Notes under the pieces: generated by a model
The model's input: only the letters and a program-made list of their open reading frames with translations
Databases searched by the model: none
What the model was told of the DNA's origin: nothing
Shown here: in pieces, positions 3,634 to 24,760 of the stretch
Layout of the letters: every line of letters begins with the position of its first letter
Position numbering within the stretch: the stretch's first letter is position 1
Sequence record: OR594179
Direction: 5' to 3' (one strand)
Length of the DNA: 44,656 nucleotides
DNA from: Escherichia phage vB_EcoM_SHAK7163
Program-made: the position numbers and the translations under genes

Positions 3634-6261
3634 ATGCAAGACCTACACGCTATTCAACTTCAACTTGAAGAAGAAATGTTTAACGGCGGTATCCGTCGCT
3701 TTGAAGCGGACCAACAACGCCAGATTGCATCCGGTAATGAATCAGACACGGCATGGAATCGCCGCTTATTGTCCGAACTAATCGCACCTATGGCGGAAGG
3801 TATTCAGGCTTACAAGGAAGAATACGAAGGCAAGAGAGGTCGTGCACCACGTGCATTAGCTTTCATTAACTGCGTAGGAAACGAAGTGGCAGCATATATC
3901 ACCATGAAAATCGTTATGGATATGCTGAACACAGACGTTACCTTACAAGCAATCGCTATGAATGTAGCGGACCGCATCGAAGACCAAGTACGTTTTAGCA
4001 AGCTGGAAGGTCACGCAGCTAAGTACTTTGAGAAAGTGAAGAAGTCACTTAAGGCTAGCAAGACTAAATCTTATCGTCATGCGCACAACGTAGCGGTAGT
4101 AGCTGAGAAATCTGTTGCTGACCGTGACGCGGATTTCTCCCGTTGGGAGGCATGGCCTAAAGACACCTTGCTGCAAATCGGTATGACCTTGCTCGAAATA
4201 TTGGAGAATAGTGTATTCTTCAATGGTCAACCTGTCTTCCTTCGTACCTTGCGCACTAACGGCGGAAAGCATGGTGTTTACTATTTACAGACCAGTGAAC
4301 ATGTTGGAGAGTGGATAACTGCATTTAAGGAACATGTAGCGCAGCTCAGCCCTGCCTATGCACCTTGCGTTATACCTCCCCGCCCTTGGGTATCACCTTT
4401 TAACGGTGGGTTTCATACTGAGAAAGTAGCAAGCCGTATTCGTCTGGTAAAAGGCAATCGTGAGCACGTCCGCAAGCTGACCAAAAAGCAAATGCCAGCC
4501 GTTTATAAGGCTGTTAACGCTTTGCAGGCAACGAAGTGGCAGGTTAATAAAGAGGTTTTACAGGTTGTGGAGGACGTTATACGTCTAGACCTCGGCTATG
4601 GTGTGCCTTCCTTTAAACCACTCATCGACCGTGAGAACAAGCCAGCTAATCCAGTGCCGTTAGAGTTCCAGCACCTGCGAGGCCGTGAACTTAAAGAGAT
4701 GCTAACGCCGGAACAATGGCAAGCCTTCATCAACTGGAAAGGCGAATGTACCAAGCTGTATACCGCTGAAACTAAGCGCGGCAGCAAATCGGCGGCGACC
4801 GTCCGCATGGTTGGGCAGGCACGTAAATACAGCCAGTTTGACGCCATCTACTTCGTGTATGCACTGGACAGCCGCAGCCGCGTCTACGCGCAATCTAGCA
4901 CGCTCTCTCCGCAATCAAACGACTTAGGCAAGGCATTGCTCCGTTTTACCGAAGGGCAGCGCCTTGATAGCGCTGAGGCGCTTAAATGGTTTTTGGTGAA
5001 CGGGGCTAATAACTGGGGTTGGGATAAGAAAACTTTTGACGTGCGCACCGCTAACGTGATGGATAGTGAATTTCAAGACATGTGCCGTGACATTGCAGCG
5101 GATCCGCTAACCTTCACTCAATGGGTAAATGCCGACTCCCCTTACGGCTTCCTTGCATGGTGCTTTGAATATGCGCGTTATCTGGATGCACTGGATGAAG
5201 GCACGCAAGACCAATTCATGACGCACCTCCCAGTCCATCAAGATGGTAGTTGTTCTGGTATACAGCACTACAGTGCTATGCTACGCGATGCAGTAGGTGC
5301 GAAAGCGGTAAACCTTAAGCCCTCTGACTCTCCTCAAGATATTTATGGTGCCGTTGCGCAGGTAGTAATTCAGAAGAATTATGCATACATGAATGCAGAG
5401 GATGCGGAAACCTTCACTTCTGGCAGCGTGACTTTAACAGGTGCGGAACTGCGTAGTATGGCTAGTGCGTGGGATATGATAGGAATCACTCGCGGCCTAA
5501 CCAAAAAGCCCGTAATGACACTACCTTATGGCAGCACACGTCTAACCTGCCGTGAGTCAGTGATTGATTATATCGTTGATTTAGAAGAAAAAGAGGCCCA
5601 ACGGGCTATTGCGGAAGGGCGTACCGCCAATCCTGTACACCCTTTTGATAATGACCGTAAAGACAGCCTTACACCTAGCGCAGCTTATAACTATATGACA
5701 GCTTTAATCTGGCCTTCTATTTCGGAAGTGGTTAAAGCTCCTATAGTGGCAATGAAAATGATTCGTCAGCTTGCCCGTTTCGCAGCTAAAAGGAATGAAG
5801 GCTTAGAGTATACCCTGCCTACTGGCTTCATCTTGCAACAAAAGATTATGGCTACTGATATGCTCCGCGTATCTACTTGCTTGATGGGAGAAATCAAGAT
5901 GAGTCTACAGATTGAAACGGACGTAGTAGATGAAACGGCAATGATGGGCGCTGCTGCTCCTAACTTTGTGCATGGTCATGATGCCAGCCACCTTATCTTA
6001 ACAGTCTGCGACCTTGTTGATAAAGGGATTACATCTATCGCAGTTATTCATGATTCTTTTGGCACTCATGCAGGCCGTACAGCCGACCTTCGTGATAGCT
6101 TAAGGGCAGAAATGGTGAAGATGTATCAAGGCCGTAATGCACTGCAAAGCCTGCTAGATGAGCACGAAGAACGCTGGTTAGTTGATACCGGAATACAAGT
6201 ACCAGAGCAAGGGGAGTTTGACCTTAACGAAATCTTAGTTTCAGACTATTGCTTCGCATAA
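3634..6261 (+). CDS. T7-type single-subunit DNA-dependent RNA polymerase
   Basis: 875 aa; motifs [43 protein letters not shown] and C-terminal ...SDYCFA closely match remembered T7 RNAP ([22 protein letters not shown], ...FAFA). Confidence 0.97.
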
Positions 6262-6333: not shown

Positions 6334-6349
6334 GTCTCACATGTGAGAC
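6334..6349. repeat. 16-bp perfect palindrome GTCTCACATGTGAGAC (copy 1)
   Basis: Exact palindrome 3 bp upstream of promoter at 6352. Confidence 0.9.
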
Positions 6350-6516: not shown

Positions 6517-6532
6517 GTCTCACATGTGAGAC
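6517..6532. repeat. 16-bp perfect palindrome GTCTCACATGTGAGAC (copy 2)
   Basis: Exact palindrome 6 bp upstream of promoter at 6538. Confidence 0.9.
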
Positions 6533-6717: not shown

Positions 6718-8706
6718 ATGGCTATTATTCAGAATGTACCGTGTCCTGCCTGTCAAAAGAATGGACATGATATTACTGGCAACCATCTCATGATATTTGA
6801 TGATGGTGCTGGCTACTGTAATCGTGGACACTTTCATGATAATGGTAGACCTTACTATCACAAGCCGGAAGGTGGCATCGAGATAACCGAGTTACCTATT
6901 ACTGGCAATATCAAATATACACCTTCTCAATTCAAAGAAATGGAGAAGGAAGGGAAGATAAGCGACCCTAAATTACGTGCCATCGCACTTGGTGGTATGC
7001 GTATGAAAGACCGTTGGGAGGTCATGAATGAACAAGAAAGGGCAGAGCAAGAAGCAGAGTGGAAACTTGATGTTGAATGGTTCCTCACGCTTAAGCGTAA
7101 GAACCTTGTTTCCCGACACATTCGCGGCGACATTTGCGCATTGTATGATGTACGTGTCGGACACGATGAAGAGGGTAGAGTCTCGCGGCATTACTATCCA
7201 CGCTTCGAGAAAGGCGAGCTAGTAGGTGCTAAGTGTCGCACATTACCTAAAGACTTTAAGTTTGGTCATTTAGGTAAACTCTTTGGTATGCAAGATCTTT
7301 TCGGGATGAATACTTTGTCTCACGTGTTAGACAAGGGAAGACGAAAGGATTGCTTGCTTATTGTGGGTGGGGAACTGGATGCGCTAGCAGCGCAGCAGAT
7401 GCTCCTTGATTCTGCCAAGGGTACTAAGTGGGAAGGTCAACCTTACCATGTATGGTCTGTTAACAAAGGGGAGTCTTGCCTTGAAGAGATTGTGCAGAAC
7501 CGTGAACACATCGCCCAATTCAAGAAGATTATTTGGGGCTTCGATGGGGATGAGGTAGGGCAGAAGCAGAACCAGCAAGCGGCTCGCCTGTTTCCTGGCA
7601 AATCCTATATCCTTGAGTACCCTTCTGGTTGCAAAGATGCCAACAAGGCATTGATGGCTGGCAAGGCTAAAGAGTTTGTTGATGCATGGTTTAATGCCAA
7701 GTCATCTGATGAAGTCTTTGGTAGCCAGATTAAATCTATCGCATCTCAAAGGGATAAGCTCAAGGCTGCACGTCCAGAGCAAGGACTATCATGGCCTTGG
7801 CCTAAGCTGAACAAGGTAACGCTAGGTATTCGTAAGAACCAGCTTATCATTGTAGGTGCAGGGTCTGGTGTAGGTAAGACTGAGTTCCTTCGTGAAGTAG
7901 TTAAGCACCTCATTGAAGAACACGGTGAATCTGTGGGCATCATTTCTACAGAAGACCCGATGGTCAAGGTGTCCCGTGCTTTTATCGGCAAGTGGATTGA
8001 TAAGCGTATTGAGTTACCTCCAACCAACGACCCGAAAGAAGATGGATACCGCGAGGTGTTCGACTATACCGAGGAAGAAGCTAACGCCGCCATTGATTAT
8101 GTAGCTGATACAGGTAAGCTGTTTGTAGCTGACCTAGAGGGTGACTATTCGATGGAAAAGGTAGAGCAAACTTGCCTAGAGTTTGAGGCTATGGGTATTT
8201 CTAATATCATCATTGATAACTTAACGGGGATTAAATTAGATGAGCGTGCTTTTGGTGGGAAGGTTGGTGCACTTGATGAATGCGTCAAGCGGATTGGTAC
8301 TATCAAAGACCGACACCCGGTTACTATATTCCTTGTATCACACCTTACACGTCCCCCGGCAAACCGTACCCAACACGAAGAAGGTGGCGAAGTTATCCTT
8401 TCTGACTTCCGAGGCTCAGGCGCTATCGGATTCTGGGCATCTTACGCCTTGGGGATTGAGCGTAATACAAGAGCTGAAACGCTTGATGAAAGGACTACCA
8501 CGTACATCTCGTGTGTCAAAGACCGCGATCAAGGTATCTACACTGGAACCAAGGTCATGCTTAAAGGTGACATTCAGACCGGACGTTTGATGGAACCACA
8601 AGCCCGTACTAAGTCATTTGATACAGGTGAAGCAAGGCAGCAAGAGGTGCCTGATTTACCGGACACTATAGAAGAGACAAACTTTGAAGATGAACAGGAG
8701 TTTTAA
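6718..8706 (+). CDS. DNA primase/helicase
   Basis: 662 aa; N-terminal zinc-binding CPACQ...CNRGH, helicase Walker A GAGSGVGKTEF, acidic C-terminus ending EDEQEF. Confidence 0.9.
   Translation: MAIIQNVPCPACQKNGHDITGNHLMIFDDGAGYCNRGHFHDNGRPYYHKPEGGIEITELPITGNIKYTPSQFKEMEKEGKISDPKLRAIALGGMRMKDRWEVMNEQERAEQEAEWKLDVEWFLTLKRKNLVSRHIRGDICALYDVRVGHDEEGRVSRHYYPRFEKGELVGAKCRTLPKDFKFGHLGKLFGMQDLFGMNTLSHVLDKGRRKDCLLIVGGELDALAAQQMLLDSAKGTKWEGQPYHVWSVNKGESCLEEIVQNREHIAQFKKIIWGFDGDEVGQKQNQQAARLFPGKSYILEYPSGCKDANKALMAGKAKEFVDAWFNAKSSDEVFGSQIKSIASQRDKLKAARPEQGLSWPWPKLNKVTLGIRKNQLIIVGAGSGVGKTEFLREVVKHLIEEHGESVGIISTEDPMVKVSRAFIGKWIDKRIELPPTNDPKEDGYREVFDYTEEEANAAIDYVADTGKLFVADLEGDYSMEKVEQTCLEFEAMGISNIIIDNLTGIKLDERAFGGKVGALDECVKRIGTIKDRHPVTIFLVSHLTRPPANRTQHEEGGEVILSDFRGSGAIGFWASYALGIERNTRAETLDERTTTYISCVKDRDQGIYTGTKVMLKGDIQTGRLMEPQARTKSFDTGEARQQEVPDLPDTIEETNFEDEQEF
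8654..8676 (+). promoter_or_regulatory. phage RNAP promoter embedded in 3' end of primase/helicase gene
   Basis: ATTTACCGGACACTATAGAAGAG inside coding sequence (encodes ...LPDTIEE...). Confidence 0.65.
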
Positions 8707-10255: not shown

Positions 10256-10460
10256 ATTAAGCAAGGTTTGCTCTTGCGGTAAAGGTTATCGCAGTCGTAT
10301 TGATGGTAAGTGTGGGCATTGCAGGTCTAAGAAAGAGGCTGCTTTGTTTGATAAGTACCACAATGAATTAGCATATAACTATCCTCATCTAACACCTAAT
10401 TCTTTATTAGGACTTGGTTATAGGGTTAAATACTTTGGAGCAATCTATGAAATCAATTGA
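10242..10460 (+). CDS. hypothetical zinc-ribbon-like protein (72 aa)
   Basis: ATG after AGAGG; CSCG...CGHC cysteine pairs. Confidence 0.45.
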   Translation: MKTIKLSKVCSCGKGYRSRIDGKCGHCRSKKEAALFDKYHNELAYNYPHLTPNSLLGLGYRVKYFGAIYEIN

Positions 10461-12993
10461 TTGGAAGAAGGAGGCAGAAGGTCGTATCCTCGTGATGGAT
10501 GCGGAAGCTAAAGGACTCCTTGACGCTATCCGATATGGACACCGTGAAGATGTGCATATCATTTGCTGCATGGACTTGCTTACTACCGAGGAGTTTCTCT
10601 TCTTTGACCCGTATGAGATGCGTGACCCTGAAGCAAGAGAACGCCTGAAGGAATGGGAAGGTCATCAAGATGGTGACTTGGTTGATGGTGTTAACTTCCT
10701 GAAGCACTGTGAGGCTATTGTGTCGCAGAACTTCCTAGGGTATGACGGTCTTCTCTTTGAGAAAGCATTTCCTGATATATGGAAAGGCTTTAATTACACA
10801 GAGAAGCGTGGCAAGGGCAGGCTCCGTGCCGACCTGTGTCCTGTGCGAGTCATGGACACGCTGGTGATGAGCCGCCTGTTAAACCCTGATAGACGCCTCC
10901 CTCCGCAAGCATATGCCAAAGGCATGGGTAACGTCGCCCCTCACTCAATTGAGGCGCACGGCATCCGTATAGGCCGCTATAAGCCGGAGAATGAGGATTG
11001 GTCTAAACTAACTGATCACATGGTTCACCGTGTACGTGAGGACGTGGCGATTGGTCGTGACCTGTTCCTCTGGCTCTTTAACGGGGAATGGATGGAGCAC
11101 AAACGCCGTGGAGTGAACAAACGTACTGGCCTAGGGATTGAGACAGCCTTCCACATGGAGTCCATTGTGGCGCTGGAGATGAGCCGTCAGGCAGAGCGTG
11201 GATTCCGTCTGGATATCGACAAGGCGTTAGCACGATGCGAGGAATTGGACGCTAAGATTGATGAGACAGTCGCAGCGTTCCGTCCGCACATGCCTATGCG
11301 TATCAAGTCTAAACCTTTTAAACCGGAAGAAAAGAATGAAGTATGCCAACGCGCAAATGAGTATGGAGCTAGCAACAATATACCTACTGTCCTTGACCCC
11401 TCTCACTTTCTTCACGCAGAGAGACGAGGAGATCGCAAGACAGTATGGAGTGTCACTACTAAGTCTGGTGATTGGTCGGCTAGCGTCAAGAAAGACTTTC
11501 CTCACCTTAGAGGAAACCGTAATGACACGCCAAGTATCAAGTGGATTGGCGCTTACTCGCCTGTTACTTTCGAAGAGATTCCCTTGGGTAACAGGGATAC
11601 AGTTAAGCAAGTGCTCTATGATTATGGATGGAAGGGTGTTGAATTTAATGATACCGAGCAAGCGCATCTCGATGAGTATGGAGTGTTACCCAAGCCTTGG
11701 AGTGGGAAGATAAATGAAAAGTCCCTTACTTTATGGCAAGAGAGAGCCGCACGTGAAGGTAAAACAGTCCCTGATTGGTGCTTGGGTATCGCTGCATGGT
11801 ACATACTCGTATCCCGTCGTGGTCAGATCCTCAACCGTGGTGACGTTGAAGCCTTCGACCAGAAGGGGGTGTGGCCTTCGCAAGCTGGTATACGAAAGTG
11901 TCGCGGCCTTGTACCTGTAGCATTTAACAAGGAGTTAGGAATCAATGCGCAGCAATACTACGAAAGGTACGGATGCTGGCCTACGTCAGACAAGGATGAC
12001 GGAGAATGGCGTGTGCCAGCTATTGCTATTAGTATTGGAACTTCTACGTTCCGTATGCGTCATCGTAACGTGGTTAATATTCCTGCCCGTGGTTTGTATC
12101 CTTTACGTGATTTATTCATAGCCGGTAAAGGTAAGCTAATCCTTGGTTGTGATGGTGCTGGTCTTGAACTACGTGTACTGTCTCACTTCATGAATGACCC
12201 TGAATATCAAGATATTGTACTGCATGGTGACATTCACACCCATAATCAAATGAAGGCTGGTCTTCCTAAGCGTGACATGGCGAAGACATTTATATATGCC
12301 TTCCTATATGGGTCTGGTATAGCTAACCTTGCAGCAGTATGTGGTGTTACTGAGGAAGAAATGGAGGAAGTTGTGGCAAGATTTGAGGTTGAACTACCAT
12401 CTCTTGCACGCCTTCGTGAGAATGTTATCGCACAAGGTAACAAGTTTGGCTACCTACAAGCACCTGATGGTCATTGGGGTCGCATCCGTATGTCTGGTGG
12501 TGAACTTAAAGAGCACACTATGCTTAACGTACTACTCCAGATGACTGGTTCTCTGTGTATGAAATACGCATTGGTCAGAGCGTTTGCAGTGATGCGCAAG
12601 GAAGGTGTGGCCTTAGATAGTATGGGAAACCCTTGCGGTATAGCTAACGTGCACGATGAAATCCAGATGGAAGTCCCTGAAGATGAGGTCTTGTATCTCA
12701 ACTACGACTTGCCTTTCACCTTAGAAGGGTTCGAAACAGAGAAGGCTGCTGTGAAAGCAGTGTTCGATGCAGAGGAGAAACGTGTTCATGTGGATTCTGA
12801 AGGACGTATGTGGTCTGCTGCAAATCTCGTTAGCGTTGATGCTGATGCTGGTGTACTTCATTGCCAGCGTCGTTATCACCGTGCAGGGCATATCATTGCC
12901 GATGCAATGACTTGGGCTGGTCATTATTTGAAGATGCGTTGTCCGATGGCAGGTGAGTATAAGATTGGTGCAAGCTGGAAGGAAACACACTGA
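10447..12993 (+). CDS. DNA polymerase, family A, with 3'-5' exonuclease domain
   Basis: 849 aa from ATG with GGAG SD (track ORF begins at TTG 10414); exo motif ILVMDAEAKGL; pol motifs GCDGAGLELRVLSHF, KTFIYAFLYGSG, VHDEIQMEV. Confidence 0.93.
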   Translation: MKSIDWKKEAEGRILVMDAEAKGLLDAIRYGHREDVHIICCMDLLTTEEFLFFDPYEMRDPEARERLKEWEGHQDGDLVDGVNFLKHCEAIVSQNFLGYDGLLFEKAFPDIWKGFNYTEKRGKGRLRADLCPVRVMDTLVMSRLLNPDRRLPPQAYAKGMGNVAPHSIEAHGIRIGRYKPENEDWSKLTDHMVHRVREDVAIGRDLFLWLFNGEWMEHKRRGVNKRTGLGIETAFHMESIVALEMSRQAERGFRLDIDKALARCEELDAKIDETVAAFRPHMPMRIKSKPFKPEEKNEVCQRANEYGASNNIPTVLDPSHFLHAERRGDRKTVWSVTTKSGDWSASVKKDFPHLRGNRNDTPSIKWIGAYSPVTFEEIPLGNRDTVKQVLYDYGWKGVEFNDTEQAHLDEYGVLPKPWSGKINEKSLTLWQERAAREGKTVPDWCLGIAAWYILVSRRGQILNRGDVEAFDQKGVWPSQAGIRKCRGLVPVAFNKELGINAQQYYERYGCWPTSDKDDGEWRVPAIAISIGTSTFRMRHRNVVNIPARGLYPLRDLFIAGKGKLILGCDGAGLELRVLSHFMNDPEYQDIVLHGDIHTHNQMKAGLPKRDMAKTFIYAFLYGSGIANLAAVCGVTEEEMEEVVARFEVELPSLARLRENVIAQGNKFGYLQAPDGHWGRIRMSGGELKEHTMLNVLLQMTGSLCMKYALVRAFAVMRKEGVALDSMGNPCGIANVHDEIQMEVPEDEVLYLNYDLPFTLEGFETEKAAVKAVFDAEEKRVHVDSEGRMWSAANLVSVDADAGVLHCQRRYHRAGHIIADAMTWAGHYLKMRCPMAGEYKIGASWKETH

Positions 12994-13275: not shown

Positions 13276-13298
13276 ATTTACTGGACACTATAGAAGGA
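13276..13298 (+). promoter_or_regulatory. phage RNAP promoter
   Basis: ATTTACTGGACACTATAGAAGGA. Confidence 0.75.
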
Positions 13299-13362
13299 AA
13301 GCCTAGGTAATCTAGGTTTATAAGGTAGTATAGGTAATTAAGTAAATATAGGAGATATAAAT

Positions 13363-13740
13363 ATGTCTATGGTAACTACTCTGGTATTCGTGGCTCAATA
13401 CTTTCGTGGTCTTGCTAATAAGTTCAAGTCCAAGGCTATCAAAGCTATTGAGGCTCGCATCGAAGCAGTACAGGCAGAGCAAGTTAAAGTTGAAGAACAT
13501 CGTAGTTCTCAAATGATTGACTGTCATAACCGCTACTATGCATCTCGTGATGAACTAAATGCACGTCAAGTCAAAGAGGTAGAAGATATGCTGGCACGTC
13601 ACCAGCAAGAGCGTGACAGCCTGAAAGCTGAATTTGAAGAGAACAAGGCATCAATTGCTCTTGTAAATCAAGCTGCATCTGACAGCCTGAAGAAAGAGAT
13701 TGTTATGCTGGAAATAGAACTGGACAACTTGACTAAATAA
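13363..13740 (+). CDS. hypothetical protein (125 aa), predicted coiled coil
   Basis: SD TAGGAG; heptad-like charged sequence. Confidence 0.55.
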   Translation: MSMVTTLVFVAQYFRGLANKFKSKAIKAIEARIEAVQAEQVKVEEHRSSQMIDCHNRYYASRDELNARQVKEVEDMLARHQQERDSLKAEFEENKASIALVNQAASDSLKKEIVMLEIELDNLTK

Positions 13741-13746
13741 GGGGTT

Positions 13747-14046
13747 ATGATGGAAGAAGTGATTCAAGCTAAACATGTAGGTATCATCTTTCGTGATCTA
13801 GAGCAGCGTAAAGTTGCAGGTCACACTCGTCTGGCTAAAGAAGACGATACAGCAATCACTACTGTGGAACAAGCAGATGCCTATCGTGGTCCAGAGTTTA
13901 CTCAAGGTGAAACTTGTCATCAATTGAGCCTTTCACTTTGTGACACTATGGCTAGTGTAAATGTACAAGAGGTTGAAGATGGTGAATGTGTTAGTTATGT
14001 CTACCCTCTCGATACTATTGCACGTATTAAGGTAGTTCATAAGTAA
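13747..14046 (+). CDS. hypothetical protein (99 aa)
   Basis: ORF with AAGGGG upstream. Confidence 0.5.
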   Translation: MMEEVIQAKHVGIIFRDLEQRKVAGHTRLAKEDDTAITTVEQADAYRGPEFTQGETCHQLSLSLCDTMASVNVQEVEDGECVSYVYPLDTIARIKVVHK

Positions 14047-14067
14047 TTACTGGACACTATAGAACAA
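14045..14067 (+). promoter_or_regulatory. phage RNAP promoter
   Basis: AATTACTGGACACTATAGAACAA. Confidence 0.65.
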
Positions 14068-14123
14068 TAGGTCGGCTTAGTTCGGCCTATGATTGTGTAG
14101 TGTAACAATAGGAGACTAAATAA

Positions 14124-14930
14124 ATGGCACGTGGTGATTTTGATTTTGGTGCTCAGGTTACTAAATCTGAAGGTAAAGTCTTTAAGAATCCAGAAGTAGG
14201 TGATCATGAAGCAGTAATCTCTGGCATCATTCATGTTGGTTCCTTCCAAGACATCTTTAAGAAAGGTAATACCACTGAAGTTAAGAAGCCAGCAAACTTT
14301 GTTCTGGTTAAGATTGTCCTGATGGGTGACGATGACAAGAACGAAGATGATTCTCGCATGGAACAATGGATGGCTGTGCCTCTGAAGTCTGGTGATAAGG
14401 CAACACTGACTAAGTTCCTGAATGCAGTTGACCCTAAAGAGTTGCTGGGTGGCTTTGATGATTTTATCGGTGAATGTCTGACTGCAACTATGGTTGGCTC
14501 TGGCGACAAGAATGATGATGGTACTTTCAAGTATGTTAACTGGAAAGGCTTTGGCGGTATGCCTGATAAGTTGAAGAAGCTTGTACTGGCTCAGGTAGAA
14601 GAGGAAGGTCTGTCTATGACAGGTCATATAACCTTCGACAAGCTGACCAAAGAAATCCTTGATGACATCCCAGCTAACTTGGTACGTCAATACTTCCTGA
14701 ACGAGACACCTCGTGGTAAGAACCTGTCTGTTGCTGGCTCTCACGTAGAAGCTATTATCAAAGCTGCTCGTGAAGAAGACCCTGAATGGAAGAAGGCTAA
14801 GAAGAAAGACGAGGAAGATGCTACCCCAGCTAATCGTAAATCTCTGGATACTGGTGAGTCTGTTCCACAGGAAGTACCTGAAGCAGAAGACACTCCTGCA
14901 CCGGAGATGGATGAGGACGCGGAATATTAA
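14124..14930 (+). CDS. putative ssDNA-binding protein (gp2.5-like by position and acidic C-tail)
   Basis: 268 aa; SD TAGGAG; C-terminal tail EDTPAPEMDEDAEY is acidic with a terminal aromatic residue as in T7 gp2.5; no direct sequence match recalled. Confidence 0.5.
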   Translation: MARGDFDFGAQVTKSEGKVFKNPEVGDHEAVISGIIHVGSFQDIFKKGNTTEVKKPANFVLVKIVLMGDDDKNEDDSRMEQWMAVPLKSGDKATLTKFLNAVDPKELLGGFDDFIGECLTATMVGSGDKNDDGTFKYVNWKGFGGMPDKLKKLVLAQVEEEGLSMTGHITFDKLTKEILDDIPANLVRQYFLNETPRGKNLSVAGSHVEAIIKAAREEDPEWKKAKKKDEEDATPANRKSLDTGESVPQEVPEAEDTPAPEMDEDAEY

Positions 14931-14939
14931 GGAGAACGG

Positions 14940-15158
14940 ATGAAAGTACAAATCGTAACTCTGCATTGCAAGAAAGGAATCACCACACTTGGCGGCAATA
15001 CTTTTCACTCCTTCTCTGAAGGGGAGACATACGCCGACCTTCACTATATCTGGCGTGACGGGCAGCACGTGGTGAACTACAGCGACCCTGCGACTGGTAA
15101 ACGCCACGGCGTGTCGCTTCCGGCGCATGACATTGCTCAGGTGAACACAGTTTTATAA
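14940..15158 (+). CDS. hypothetical protein (72 aa)
   Basis: SD AAGGAG. Confidence 0.5.
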   Translation: MKVQIVTLHCKKGITTLGGNTFHSFSEGETYADLHYIWRDGQHVVNYSDPATGKRHGVSLPAHDIAQVNTVL

Positions 15159-15159
15159 A

Positions 15160-15175
15160 GTCTCACGTGTGAGAC
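15160..15175. repeat. palindrome-family element GTCTCACGTGTGAGAC (copy 5, one mismatch)
   Basis: Single substitution relative to consensus; 15 bp upstream of promoter at 15191. Confidence 0.8.
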
Positions 15176-15190
15176 AAATCGGTGTCCGGT

Positions 15191-15213
15191 ATTTACTGGA
15201 CACTATAGAAGAG
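15191..15213 (+). promoter_or_regulatory. phage RNAP promoter
   Basis: ATTTACTGGACACTATAGAAGAG (exact consensus). Confidence 0.8.
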
Positions 15214-15263
15214 AAGAATTTTAATCGGCGATAATGCCATAACCAACAAAAGGAGAATTTAAT

Positions 15264-15635
15264 ATGTTCAAGATTGAAACTATCGTAAACCGTGTTGTTA
15301 AAGGTGCTACTCTGGTATCCGTTGAGTCTTTCATTATCGTCGATGAAGCTGATCAACTGGTAGCTGGTACTAAGGCTTACGATACCCGTGAAGAAGCTCA
15401 GGCTAAGATTGACAGCATGGGTAACTTCGCTGCTGGTCTGGAGTTCGCTCGTGCTTGCTTCCCTGAGCAGGCTGACAAAGCCCAGATCGGGAAGGCTAAC
15501 ATCGTAGCTGAATATCTGGATTGGATTGCTGCTGGTAAACCAGTGAAAGAAGTTAAAGCTGCTGAAGAAGCTGAATCTCCTGCAGTAGAAGTGTCTGCAC
15601 CGGAAGCTCCGGTTAGCGAAGAGGAAGAGTTTTGA
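15264..15635 (+). CDS. hypothetical acidic protein (123 aa) with C-terminal ...SEEEEF
   Basis: SD AAAGGAG; own promoter upstream and own terminator downstream. Confidence 0.65.
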   Translation: MFKIETIVNRVVKGATLVSVESFIIVDEADQLVAGTKAYDTREEAQAKIDSMGNFAAGLEFARACFPEQADKAQIGKANIVAEYLDWIAAGKPVKEVKAAEEAESPAVEVSAPEAPVSEEEEF

Positions 15636-15693
15636 TAATAGCAGGTGTAGCCTCTGTTAGTCCTAGTTGACTATCACGCTCACCTCATCTAAT

Positions 15694-15727
15694 GCCCTGT
15701 CTGCCTTAGTGTAGGCAGGGTCTTTTG
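15694..15727 (+). terminator. hairpin + U-run terminator
   Basis: GCCCTGTCTGCC-TTAGTG-TAGGCAGGGTC followed by TTTTG. Confidence 0.65.
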
Positions 15728-15752
15728 CGTAATAGTTATTGGAGAATGAATT

Positions 15753-16025
15753 ATGCCGACTATTGAATCTCGAATTGAACTGGACATTAGCTACAATGCA
15801 ATCACCAGGCAGTATATTGGGGTTGCCTATGATTACAAAACTGGTGAGAAGCTAGTGGAGGTGAGACAATGGGATGACTATTGGTTAAGACAGAACCTCC
15901 ATGATGCGGTGTCCTCCTTCTTGAAGGAGTGGCCTACATGCGACCAAACTTCGACTTCGGAGCTACAGTATCGGAAGACAATAATCTCATCCTGTGGCCG
16001 ACTGAAGGTAATCGAATCGCTTTAA
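15753..16025 (+). CDS. hypothetical protein (90 aa)
   Basis: SD GGAGAATGA; overlaps start of exonuclease gene by about 88 nt in another frame. Confidence 0.4.
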   Translation: MPTIESRIELDISYNAITRQYIGVAYDYKTGEKLVEVRQWDDYWLRQNLHDAVSSFLKEWPTCDQTSTSELQYRKTIISSCGRLKVIESL

Positions 16026-16966
16026 TAGATGCTGATATGTTACCCTACATCGTAGGTTATACAATCAGTGACATGACTTATTTACGAGCCACAACTCGTG
16101 CTAAGTCAGGACAAGTCCCATCAATCAAAGATACACCTGAGTGTAAGCAAGCATGTGACCGTGTGAACTCCTTGCTTAACTCTTGGGTGTATGCAGCAGA
16201 GTGTGATGCAGCTAAGCTATTCATGACGAAATCAGAAGCTAACTTCCGTGTCCGCCTAGCATTCACAAAGCCTTATAAGGGTCAACGTAAGACCGAGAAG
16301 CCTCCGTTCTTCTATGAATTGCGAGAGCATCTCTTAGAGGTTCACGGTGCAATCTTGGCAGATGGTGAGGAAGCTGATGACCTCATGAGCATCGCACAAT
16401 GGGACAGCCACCGCCGCTTCCAGCAAGATACAGGTAACGAGTTCCCTATCGGTAGTCCAGAGCATAAAGCATTCTCTGATACTTGCATCGTTTCCTTGGA
16501 TAAGGATTTGATGATTGTTCCCGGTTGGCATCTACAGCCGGGTCAAGAGAAGAAGTGGGTAGAGCCTATGGGCTGGCTTGAGTTACGCCGCAAAGCTAAT
16601 GGTCAAGTCAAAGACCTAAAAGGTGCTGGCCTTATGTTCCATTATGCACAGATGATTATCGGTGATGATATTGATAACTATGCTGGCATACCTGGTCGTG
16701 GTGCTAAATATGCCTATGATCTTCTCAAAGGTTGTAAGACAGAGAAAGAATTGTACATGGCAGTGCTTGGTGCTTACAAAGATAAGTTCGGTCATGGACA
16801 GGTTAAGATTAAGAATTACCGAGGTGGTTATCGGGTGGGCAAAGCCTTTGACCTTATGCTTGAATGCGGTCGCTTAGCTCACATGGCTAGGTTCAAAGGT
16901 GATATATGGCGAGCCGATAAGAACCCAATCTTGTGGGGAGATGATGCGGAATGGTTAGCAAATTAA
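15938..16966 (+). CDS. 5'-3' exonuclease (T7 gene 6-like, FEN family)
   Basis: IALIDADMLPY N-terminal acidic motif; SLDKDLMIVPG and YAGIPGRGAKYAYDLL resemble remembered T7 gp6 (SCDKDFKTIP, YSGIAGWG). Confidence 0.85.
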   Translation: MRPNFDFGATVSEDNNLILWPTEGNRIALIDADMLPYIVGYTISDMTYLRATTRAKSGQVPSIKDTPECKQACDRVNSLLNSWVYAAECDAAKLFMTKSEANFRVRLAFTKPYKGQRKTEKPPFFYELREHLLEVHGAILADGEEADDLMSIAQWDSHRRFQQDTGNEFPIGSPEHKAFSDTCIVSLDKDLMIVPGWHLQPGQEKKWVEPMGWLELRRKANGQVKDLKGAGLMFHYAQMIIGDDIDNYAGIPGRGAKYAYDLLKGCKTEKELYMAVLGAYKDKFGHGQVKIKNYRGGYRVGKAFDLMLECGRLAHMARFKGDIWRADKNPILWGDDAEWLAN

Positions 16967-18904: not shown

Positions 18905-19021
18905 ATGACTTGTCCTAATTGTGGAAGTGAAGAAACAGAACATGTAGTTATGTCAGATACTTATCATTTCTACTTCTGTCATAGCTGCGACACCACCATT
19001 GAAGAGGAAGAAGCTGTATGA
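18905..19021 (+). CDS. zinc-ribbon mini-protein (38 aa)
   Basis: MTCPNCGSE...FCHSCDT; stop overlaps ligase start; below track cutoff. Confidence 0.35.
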   Translation: MTCPNCGSEETEHVVMSDTYHFYFCHSCDTTIEEEEAV

Positions 19022-19965
19022 ATATATTCCAATTCCTAGGTCTTCCAGAAGACCACCGCAATCACCCATTCATGCTGGTGAAACATCGCGGTGAAGTACC
19101 TGAGAAGAAATTAACTTTTCCATGTTATGCACAGGTAAAACGAGATGGTATATTTAGTGCTGTGGTTGTTCGCAACGATGGTGTCGTTGGTGTCTTTGGA
19201 CGCACTGGAAAGAAACTGGCTAACACGGAAACCTTGGAAGAATCTTATTCAGCTTTCCCTACTGGCATTTATCTCGGTGAGTTGCAATCTATGGCTATTG
19301 ATGTCTACCTTGAAGCACTTTCTGGAGTAGTTAACCCTAACCGCACTGAGCCACTGGATTTCATAGGCCAGCAGATTAAAGACAACCTGTATATTGACTT
19401 CTTCGATATGTTAACTATTAAGGCATTCCATGATGGATTCACTGATGTTTCTTATCTCAAACGTTACGATGCTTTACATCGTCGCATCGGCGCTCATCTT
19501 AGCGGGTACAACGCTATCCTTCCTATTACTCCTTGCCATAATGAGCGAGAAGTTGAAGCGTTTGCGCAAGAGCAAATAGACGCAGGCCGAGAGGGTGCTG
19601 TGTTTAAACTGGACTGTGATTATGAAGCAGGCCACAAAGGTTATCGTCAGACTAAAGAAGTCCGTAAGGTAACTTATGACCTTACTTGTATTGGCTTTGA
19701 AGAAGGCAAAGGTAAGTACAAAGGTAAGGTAGCTAACCTCATTTTCAAATGGAAAGGAGGCAAGACAATCAAAGCTATGTTAGGTAAAGGGTGGACTCAT
19801 GCAGATGCAGAACAGATGTTCCACGATATTAAACATGGTGGACGATTGAATGTCATTGGTAAAATCTTTGAAGTAAAAGGTCTTCAGGATTCAAGCAAGG
19901 GCAACATTCGTCTGCCCAAAGCGGGAGAATTAAGACATGACAAAGATGAACCAGATTTCTTTTGA
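19018..19965 (+). CDS. ATP-dependent DNA ligase
   Basis: 315 aa; adenylation motif I KRDGI (KxDG) at AQVKRDGIFSAVV. Confidence 0.8.
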   Translation: MNIFQFLGLPEDHRNHPFMLVKHRGEVPEKKLTFPCYAQVKRDGIFSAVVVRNDGVVGVFGRTGKKLANTETLEESYSAFPTGIYLGELQSMAIDVYLEALSGVVNPNRTEPLDFIGQQIKDNLYIDFFDMLTIKAFHDGFTDVSYLKRYDALHRRIGAHLSGYNAILPITPCHNEREVEAFAQEQIDAGREGAVFKLDCDYEAGHKGYRQTKEVRKVTYDLTCIGFEEGKGKYKGKVANLIFKWKGGKTIKAMLGKGWTHADAEQMFHDIKHGGRLNVIGKIFEVKGLQDSSKGNIRLPKAGELRHDKDEPDFF

Positions 19966-20152
19966 TAGCATGAAGGCAACTCGTGCAGTTGAGGTAGCAG
20001 AAGCTATCTTTGAAACTTTATCCTGTGGCATGGAATTGCCGTATACTTTACTGGCTGATGCAGAAGAGCTTGGTCTTTCTGTAGAAGCTATCCAAGAGAA
20101 GGTTGAAGAACTCTATGGTACAGACGAAGAAGAAACCGACGATTTCATTTGA
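19937..20152 (+). CDS. hypothetical acidic protein (71 aa)
   Basis: ORF overlapping ligase 3' end. Confidence 0.4.
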   Translation: MTKMNQISFDSMKATRAVEVAEAIFETLSCGMELPYTLLADAEELGLSVEAIQEKVEELYGTDEEETDDFI

Positions 20153-23437: not shown

Positions 23438-23460
23438 ATTTACTGGACACTATAGAAGGG
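23438..23460 (+). promoter_or_regulatory. phage RNAP promoter upstream of capsid gene
   Basis: ATTTACTGGACACTATAGAAGGG. Confidence 0.8.
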
Positions 23461-24726: not shown

Positions 24727-24760
24727 GCCCTATCTACCTTGCGTAGGTAGGGTTATTTTT
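24727..24760 (+). terminator. hairpin + U-run terminator after capsid gene
   Basis: GCCCTATCTACC-TTGCG-TAGGTAGGG followed by TTATTTTTG; same family as the terminator at 15694. Confidence 0.7.

Follow-up and report, generated by a model that had tools for sequence, protein, structure and literature searches.

Bacteriophage T7 encodes the textbook minimal replisome, in which acidic, Phe-tipped C-terminal tails coordinate helicase, the SSB (a protein that binds single-stranded DNA, ssDNA), and DNA polymerase. T7 gp4 has a tail of 17 acidic residues, ending in F566, that docks on two basic patches of gp5/trx, the front one and that of the thioredoxin-binding domain; T7 gp2.5, an oligonucleotide/oligosaccharide-binding (OB) fold followed by an acidic tail ending in F232, also binds basic patches of T7 DNA polymerase through its tail, which in addition reaches the helicase and is required for stimulating the gene 6 exonuclease. 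From papers of the Richardson laboratory, the terminal Phe of both T7 tails is reportedly essential and replaceable by other aromatic residues. Suppressors of a T7 gp2.5 without its last Phe map to gene 5. The E. coli SSB tip, ...DDDIPF, is an interaction hub with a terminal Phe and several partner proteins. Here we analyze a 44,656-nucleotide window (the whole stretch of DNA considered) of Escherichia phage vB_EcoM_SHAK7163 (record OR594179), which is essentially the whole 44.7-kb genome of a K1E-like Vectrevirus (Autographiviridae, Molineuxvirinae, SP6 group); its gene order is that of the record of Escherichia phage K1E, to which bases 13300-16100 are 99.0% identical. We find that three proteins of its replication region, the primase-helicase gp9, the probable SSB gp16, and the small protein gp18, end in acidic, aromatic-tipped tails, and we propose, with moderate confidence and by analogy to T7, that these tails dock, that gp9 and gp16 share a receptor, likeliest the DNA polymerase, and that gp18 takes the same site as an adaptor or a competitor.

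The original prediction, which had read these three ends as acidic tails with a terminal aromatic residue, was correct in its readings. Nucleotides 8677-8706 read T-N-F-E-D-E-Q-E-F-stop, that is, the tip and stop codon of the primase-helicase open reading frame (ORF), and the three proteins end in ...FEDEQEF (gp9), ...PAPEMDEDAEY (gp16), and ...APVSEEEEF (gp18); the Ocr-like ORF at 1831-2160, which had been set apart as acidic without the aromatic residue, indeed ends in ...WYEGEEEE. We scanned 49 genes for a terminal F, Y, or W with at least four D/E in the preceding six residues, and we took as the chance expectation the frequency of such 7-mers within the same proteins (Poisson). The strict pattern is found in gp9, gp16, and gp18 alone (3 observed vs. 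0.05 expected; P = 2e-5); lowering the cut-off to at least three D/E adds the DNA ligase (...HDKDEPDFF; 4 observed vs. 0.20 expected; P = 5e-5). The 7-mer enrichment rejects chance or composition as the source of the tails. In T7, gp2.5 (...ADEDGDF) and gp4 (...SNDTDF) are the sole proteins with such ends among the 25 examined (genes 1.1 to 6.7), and the comparison of ends bears out the proposed likeness of the tails to those of T7 gp4 and gp2.5.

The tips are conserved across a set of 40 related loci with the whole module, drawn from IMG/VR and the annotated genomes of Erwinia, Klebsiella, Vibrio, Pseudomonas, Marinomonas, and Aeromonas phages, and spanning Molineuxvirinae and Colwellvirinae. 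Helicase, gp16, and gp18 ends in these loci are nearly always [DE]-x-[FY], and the C-termini of the DNA polymerase (...SWKETH) and of the exonuclease are non-acidic. Tips are kept while linkers drift in sequence and length, down to ~33% identity for gp18 and 32% for gp16. F and Y interchange at the tip in nature, and in two separate lineages (Aeromonas phage MJG and loci L034-36) all three proteins end in Y. These observations bear on the possibility that the tails are non-specific solubility or charge appendages in which the terminal aromatic has no docking role. The low-complexity A/E/P/V sequence of the linkers would fit such appendages, as would the acidic ends, with no strict terminal aromatic, of Ocr and of a gp25-like protein; however, in 97/97 gp16 sequences, and in nearly all relatives of gp18 and of the helicase, the aromatic lies no more than two residues from the C-terminus amid varying neighbours, such ends are enriched (P~2e-5), and the tips co-vary within genomes, as described below. 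We regard the appendage explanation as highly improbable.

The first tail-bearing protein, gp9, matches Pfam DnaB_C (1.3e-14) and Toprim_2 (3e-4) and phrog_239, DNA primase/helicase (8.5e-188), and is thus a fused primase-helicase. Its end, ...TIEETNFEDEQEF, is acidic with a terminal aromatic, as in the T7 gp4-type tail, and a terminal F or Y is present in 33/34 related loci in which the helicase was found; in SP6 the F is followed by two extra residues (...QEFNG). By sequence, gp9 and T7 gp4 are alike in combining DnaB_C and Toprim families and in having an internal aromatic ~7 residues before the terminal one (...NFEDEQEF and ...DWSNDTDF). They differ in the tip, which is E-F or E-Y for gp9 and D-F for T7 gp4, in the polymerase of the system, which here has no KWKRR patch and has another thumb insertion, and in the tail coding sequence, part of which in gp9 is a phage promoter. 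A second aromatic ~7-9 residues ahead of the terminal one occurs here (8683-8703), in Vibrio phage VEN (DLPWDEEPEQEF), in Alpheus (DLPFDLDEEAKY), and in T7 gp4 (L009, 5766-7466), which suggests a two-anchor helicase tail. The residues 'TIEE', found in the helicase tails of many relatives, are the translation of the promoter core ACTATAGAAG; the disordered linker therefore doubles as a promoter.

The second tail-bearing protein, gp16, is predicted to be an OB fold between disordered ends, and its nearest solved structures bind ssDNA. The predicted fold is that of a gp2.5-like phage SSB, and the disordered, acidic, aromatic-ended tail of such an SSB is present as well, on sequence and predicted disorder: F or Y is within the last three residues in all 97 full-length cluster representatives (32-97% identity) and is the very last residue in 69. 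gp16 thus resembles T7 gp2.5 in its modelled OB core and its ~40-residue tail; it further resembles it in having its own phage promoter and in its predicted abundance (E. coli-optimal codon fraction 0.64). Searches by sequence gave no support for homology. The gp16 profile matched neither gp2.5 nor any SSB among PDB sequences, Pfam and NCBIfam yielded no SSB match, and a profile search with the gp16 alignment returned unnamed phage proteins only; a hit to the NCBIfam 'phage replication initiation protein, NGO0469 family' was sub-threshold (18.8 bits; cut-off 75) and was not used. With nothing found by PDB profile or by hhalign (probability 0.13% for gp16 vs. gp2.5), we dropped gp16 as a gp2.5 homologue. 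The closest structural match is PrgE of plasmid pCF10 (15% sequence identity), a 144-residue protein that, unlike gp16, has no long acidic aromatic-tipped tail; gp16 may also be likened to monomeric viral-type OB-fold SSBs (e.g. Enc34 ORF6), its DNA binding being putative. The earlier label 'SSB-like' accordingly stands at the level of fold and architecture and falls at the level of sequence. We conclude from the structural prediction that gp16 is probably a phage SSB.

The third tail-bearing protein, gp18, consists, in an AlphaFold2 model with a predicted local distance difference test (pLDDT) score of 80, of a mildly acidic core and a disordered tail. The core has no meaningful structural match in the PDB or BFVD, and the protein has no Pfam or NCBIfam match; over its full length (residues 1-123; 3.4e-58) it belongs to PHROG 4429, a family that, like PHROG 862 of gp16, is without function. 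Pfam, NCBIfam, and PHROGs give no functional name for gp16 or gp18, public records label both 'hypothetical' (gp18 in >200 phage genomes), and no description of gp16 or gp18 of SP6-type phages was found in the searchable literature. The gp18 gene lies between gp16 and the exonuclease in all genomes examined. Among the matches listed, 120/120 close homologues end in EEEF, with varying linkers (APEAPV, KAEEAL, PVDAPV, and others). An exhaustive HMMER search of 1.84 billion representatives returned just 26 cluster representatives, of which 25 are small (~60-150 amino acids (aa); 33-86% identity); in 17 of these an acidic run is closed by a final F, and in 2 more F is the penultimate residue (...VDFD, ...EEFE). 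In distant contigs past phmmer detection, a 91-93-aa ORF between gp16 and the exonuclease ends in ...EEAETF or ...DESENF. When the gp18 alignment was compared with 25 T7 proteins by hhalign, all probabilities were <2%; gp18 was rejected in this way as a homologue of the class II proteins gp5.5, gp5.9, and gp2, and gp5.7 was likewise unrelated. A duplication of the gp16 C-terminal domain was rejected as the origin of gp18, hhalign finding no relationship between the two proteins.

The arrangement of the gp18 gene indicates unusually high expression. A perfect-consensus phage promoter, of which the 21-mer is the same as the capsid promoter at 23438-23458 and has just two other occurrences, is followed by a strong ribosome-binding site; the hairpin after the gene is the best terminator-like hairpin in the left 20 kb and a near-copy of the capsid terminator (24727-24753). 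Among 13 phages examined, a strong hairpin with a T-rich stretch lies 3' of gp18 in all 13, with a clean T run abutting the stem in most, and a promoter-like sequence lies ahead of gp18 in most; the paper on the SP6-like phage UAB_Phi78 describes a terminator after a gene of unknown function, in a position conserved in SP6. The E. coli-optimal codon fraction of gp18 (0.75) is the highest of 47 genes, exceeding those of the capsid gene (0.67) and the polymerase (0.48), and gp18 codon bias ranks first among six replication genes in 12/13 other phages. Because of its promoter, its terminator, and its top codon bias, gp18 is very probably one of the most abundant proteins of these phages. The original prediction had cast gp18 as a candidate additional polymerase-interacting replisome factor; the expression signatures suggest instead a stoichiometric role, as competitor, decoy, or adaptor. 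As a separate observation, 16-base palindromes, GTCTCAC(A/G)TGTGAGAC, occur at 6334-6349, 6517-6532, and 15160-15175, two of them a few bases upstream of phage promoters (6352, 15191); SP6, Vibrio phage VEN, and other relatives have palindromes of this kind ahead of their gp18 promoter. A role of the palindromes in RNA processing or regulation is possible.

High expression raises the possibility that gp18 is directed at the host, as an acidic decoy made in abundance that would, through its SSB-like tail or its DNA-like charge, sequester a host protein; candidates are H-NS or another nucleoid protein and members of the E. coli SSB-tail interactome. E. coli SSB likewise has an acidic tip with a terminal F, and the likeness to the bacterial tip extends to the disordered linker. 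T7 gp5.5, of which gp18 would be a functional analogue, is abundant. It is annotated in the T7 record as an H-NS inhibitor, and its gene lies between the polymerase and exonuclease genes. gp18 resembles gp5.5 in being small, in lying in the same polymerase-exonuclease interval, and in its apparently high output; the extreme-expression signatures, the acidity of both core and tail, and the lack of a T7 counterpart by sequence also fit a decoy. However, gp18 is not homologous to gp5.5 (hhalign probability 0.1%) or to any other T7 protein, and gp5.5 has no acidic aromatic-tipped tail. The gp18 tip is E-E-F or E-x-F and not the I-P-F of bacterial SSB; none of the tips here (E-Q-E-F, D-A-E-Y, E-E-E-F) is of the bacterial I/L-P-F form, with Pro at -2. 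The motif is carried here by three proteins of one phage, one of which, gp18, has no OB fold, whereas in bacteria one SSB has many partners. Finally, the same gp18 tip is found in phages of Vibrio, Pseudomonas, Marinomonas, and Escherichia, and it tracks the helicase tip of its own phage (Y-Y-Y lineages), both of which favour a phage-encoded partner. We consider a decoy function unlikely.

Table 1. Features of the replication region and neighbouring genes in the window.
Feature	Position	Strand	Description
RNA polymerase	3634-6261		
Primase-helicase (K1E gp9)	6718-8706	+	662 aa; Pfam, PHROG, K1E annotation
Helicase C-terminal tail	8653-8703	+	DLPDTIEETNFEDEQEF; acidic, internal F at -7, terminal F
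Phage promoter	8654-8674	+	1 mismatch to local consensus; within codons for DLPDTIEE of helicase tail
DNA polymerase (K1E gp13)	10447-12993	+	848 aa; candidate receptor for tails, by analogy
Phage promoter ahead of gp16	14045-14065	+	2 mismatches to consensus
gp16	14124-14930	+	268 aa; predicted OB fold, putative SSB; phrog_862
gp16 N-terminal motif	14124-14159	+	MARGDFDFGAQV; conserved though predicted disordered
gp16 acidic tail	14808-14927	+	residues 229-268; disordered, net charge -13
gp17	14940-15158		
gp18 promoter	15191-15211	+	ATTTACTGGACACTATAGAAG; perfect-consensus phage promoter
gp18	15264-15635	+	123 aa; phrog_4429
gp18 core	15264-15545	+	residues 1-94; predicted beta-hairpin + three helices, net charge -4
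gp18 tail	15546-15632	+	KEVKAAEEAESPAVEVSAPEAPVSEEEEF; 29 aa, disordered, net charge -8, terminal F
Terminator-like hairpin after gp18	15694-15721	+	GCCCTGTCTGCC...GGCAGGGT then CTTTTG; intrinsic-terminator-like, with T run
5'-3' exonuclease (K1E gp20)	15938-16966	+	phrog_107 exonuclease, 7e-73
Exonuclease N-terminus	15938-15973	+	MRPNFDFGATV; same motif as gp16
Endonuclease VII			between exonuclease gp20 and ligase in gene order
DNA ligase gp24	19018-19965		
Ligase tip	19945-19962	+	DEPDFF; weaker possible member
gp25-like protein	19937-20152	+	71 aa, isoelectric point 4.05; ends ...YGTDEEETDDFI (...EEETDDFI)

A receptor shared by several tails would be expected to leave a mark on their tips. 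In 16 non-redundant genomes we counted identities over the last six residues between different proteins of one genome and, for comparison, between genome-shuffled pairs, phylogeny being uncorrected. Helicase and gp16 tips have 3.00 identical residues of six within genomes vs. 2.30+-0.25 on shuffling (P = 0.005); the two proteins both end in ...ADEEF in KL01 and both in ...EQEF in VEN. This within-genome likeness is as expected for a shared receptor, and it supports one reader common to the helicase tip and the gp16 tip. For the gp18 tip the same comparison is only suggestive.

According to our proposal, disordered acidic F/Y-ended tails would be a conserved docking motif of the SP6-type replication module, like those of T7 gp4 and gp2.5: the negative tail would be drawn to a basic surface of the partner, and the terminal aromatic and free carboxylate would enter a pocket. 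gp9 and the abundant gp16 would most likely compete for, or hand over on, one receptor, most probably, by T7 analogy, the DNA polymerase, which is 34% identical to T7 gp5 over palm and fingers. gp18, with an unrelated 94-residue core and the same type of tail, would most likely occupy that receptor site too; it would either serve as an adaptor, recruiting the binding partner of its core to the replication machinery, or, as an abundant competitor, modulate the docking of helicase and SSB.

Several results weigh against this proposal, in part or as a whole. As to the receptor, an alignment of 14 SP6-type polymerases with T7 gp5 indicates that the front basic patch of T7 (KWKRR, 587-591) falls within a T7-specific insertion and is missing from them, and the T7 receptor determinants (K587/K589/R590/R591 and the thioredoxin-binding-domain loops) are not found in the SP6-type sequences of that alignment; where T7 has its thioredoxin-binding domain, the polymerase thumb has a longer insertion, with some conserved basic residues, that is unrelated to that domain in sequence. 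Because KWKRR is absent and the thumb insertion differs in sequence, a residue-by-residue transfer of the T7 receptor is not possible. Given the other conserved basic residues, a different basic patch on the polymerase is possible, and the polymerase as receptor is a best guess by analogy only. As to gp18, its tip co-varies marginally with the helicase tip (2.38 identical residues vs. 2.04+-0.17 shuffled; P = 0.04) and not significantly with the gp16 tip (P = 0.24 in the 16 genomes); its expression signatures suggest an abundance exceeding the need of a fork-associated subunit; and some relatives have no tail, these being few and the most divergent ones in the family, to which may be added the 78-aa, tail-less ORF at the gp18 position in contig L040.

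A second short motif connects gp16 to the exonuclease. The two proteins share an N-terminal motif that in gp16 lies within residues 1-19 (pLDDT <40) and includes F6, G9, and A10, which are invariant in the alignment; the motif is present in 96/97 gp16 family members. Within the window, [FY][DNE][FY]G[AGVTSCE] occurs in the gp16 and exonuclease ORFs only, and among all ORFs of 45 aa or more from 17 genomes it is almost confined to gp16 and exonuclease N-termini; the motif is not present in T7 gp2.5 or gp6. The two copies also correspond within genomes. The gp16 and exonuclease motifs are FDFGA and F[DN]FGA in Molineuxvirinae, GFDYGGEVAE and GFDYGGEVAD in Vibrio phage VEN, GFDYGV and GFDYGV in L043, and FNYGT and FNYGC in L040, and overall 5.18/8 residues are identical within a genome vs. 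4.30+-0.23 on shuffling (P = 2e-4). In PrgE, an N-terminal tail binds the neighbouring monomer on ssDNA, and T7 gp2.5 specifically stimulates exonuclease. The sequence patterns indicate that the gp16/exonuclease motif probably marks an undescribed interaction. The motif may plausibly mediate contacts between gp16 molecules, in which case the exonuclease would have copied it so as to dock on gp16-coated DNA; or the two motifs may bind a common partner, for example the gp18 core.

These data also bear on whether the tails bind the polymerase at all. The tails might, as ssDNA mimics, bind the ssDNA-binding cleft of gp16 or of the helicase; gp18 would then be a free 'tail carrier' that loads, unloads, or solubilises the SSB, and the FDFGA motif would belong to the same gp16-centred network. 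The T7 gp2.5 tail reportedly competes with ssDNA for the gp2.5 binding surface (Marintcheva et al. 2008). Binding in a gp16-centred network would also fit the reach of the T7 gp2.5 tail to helicase and exonuclease, the predicted abundance of both gp16 and gp18, as in a stoichiometric partnership, the contact of the PrgE N-terminal tail with the neighbouring monomer, the co-variation of the gp16 and exonuclease N-terminal motifs, and a polymerase without the T7 front basic patch. However, gp16 and gp18 tips show no co-variation, and T7 tails serve several partners, so that these points are compatible with polymerase docking too. We judge ssDNA mimicry to be improbable. A bolder form of our docking proposal makes gp18 a hyper-abundant 'free tail' adaptor, the core of which reads the FDFGA-type motif while the tail takes the helicase/SSB-tail site; we regard this as quite doubtful. 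If true, it would link the removal of SSB and the processing of primers or flaps to the polymerase, or would buffer polymerase access, and the two short motifs would amount to a motif-based wiring diagram for a replisome whose polymerase lacks the T7 basic patch.

Further features of the region are as follows. The original list of tails, right as to the three, overlooked the end of the ligase, the acidic tail of the gp25-like protein, and the gp16/exonuclease N-terminal motif. The ligase tip lies a few residues past motif VI (RHDK); in relatives the residue after RHDKxxxD is F or Y in most lineages and V, A, Q, E, or L elsewhere, and T7 ligase does not end in this way. The gp25-like protein has a conserved ELYG-acidic tail with an aromatic near, not always at, the C-terminus. 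Ligase and gp25-like protein are possible, weaker users of the docking idea. On either side of gp16, gp15.5 (13747-14046) and gp17 both match phrog_8057 and have similar C-terminal ends (...YPLDTIARIKVVHK and ...PAHDIAQVNTVL); they are apparently distant paralogues, and relatives have one or two copies of this type adjoining gp16. gp15 (13363-13740), with a perfect-consensus promoter at 13276-13296 and the third-highest codon bias (0.64), has the appearance of an abundant small coiled-coil or membrane protein; its RefSeq label, 'polysaccharide chain length determinant protein', is probably an artefact of weak similarity. The gp19 ORF (15753-16025; K1E label 'DNA repair protein') begins immediately past the gp18 terminator, shares 88 bases, in a different frame, with the start of the exonuclease gene, and has an optimal-codon fraction of 0.41, among the lowest; relatives in which the gp18-exonuclease gap is just 28-87 bases have no space for it. 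Whether gp19 is a gene is doubtful, as is its annotation.

A phage helicase and SSB with acidic aromatic-tipped tails represent a known device. New with respect to the searchable literature are the presence of such a tail on a third, unrelated, hyper-expressed protein, kept across two subfamilies, the occurrence of the tails beside a polymerase without the T7 patch, and the second shared motif. The same device thus appears in the estranged branch comprising SP6, K1E, and Colwellvirinae, on proteins unrelated in sequence to the SSB of T7, which raises the questions of the docking site of the tails in a system without the T7 patch and of the co-evolution of tips with receptors; the co-varying gp16/exonuclease N-terminal motif points to a second, undescribed interaction. 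Many gp18-bearing phages are candidates for use in therapy against K1 E. coli, Klebsiella, and Salmonella, and gp18, tail-bearing and apparently among the most strongly expressed genes of these phages, is a concrete and inexpensive experimental target.

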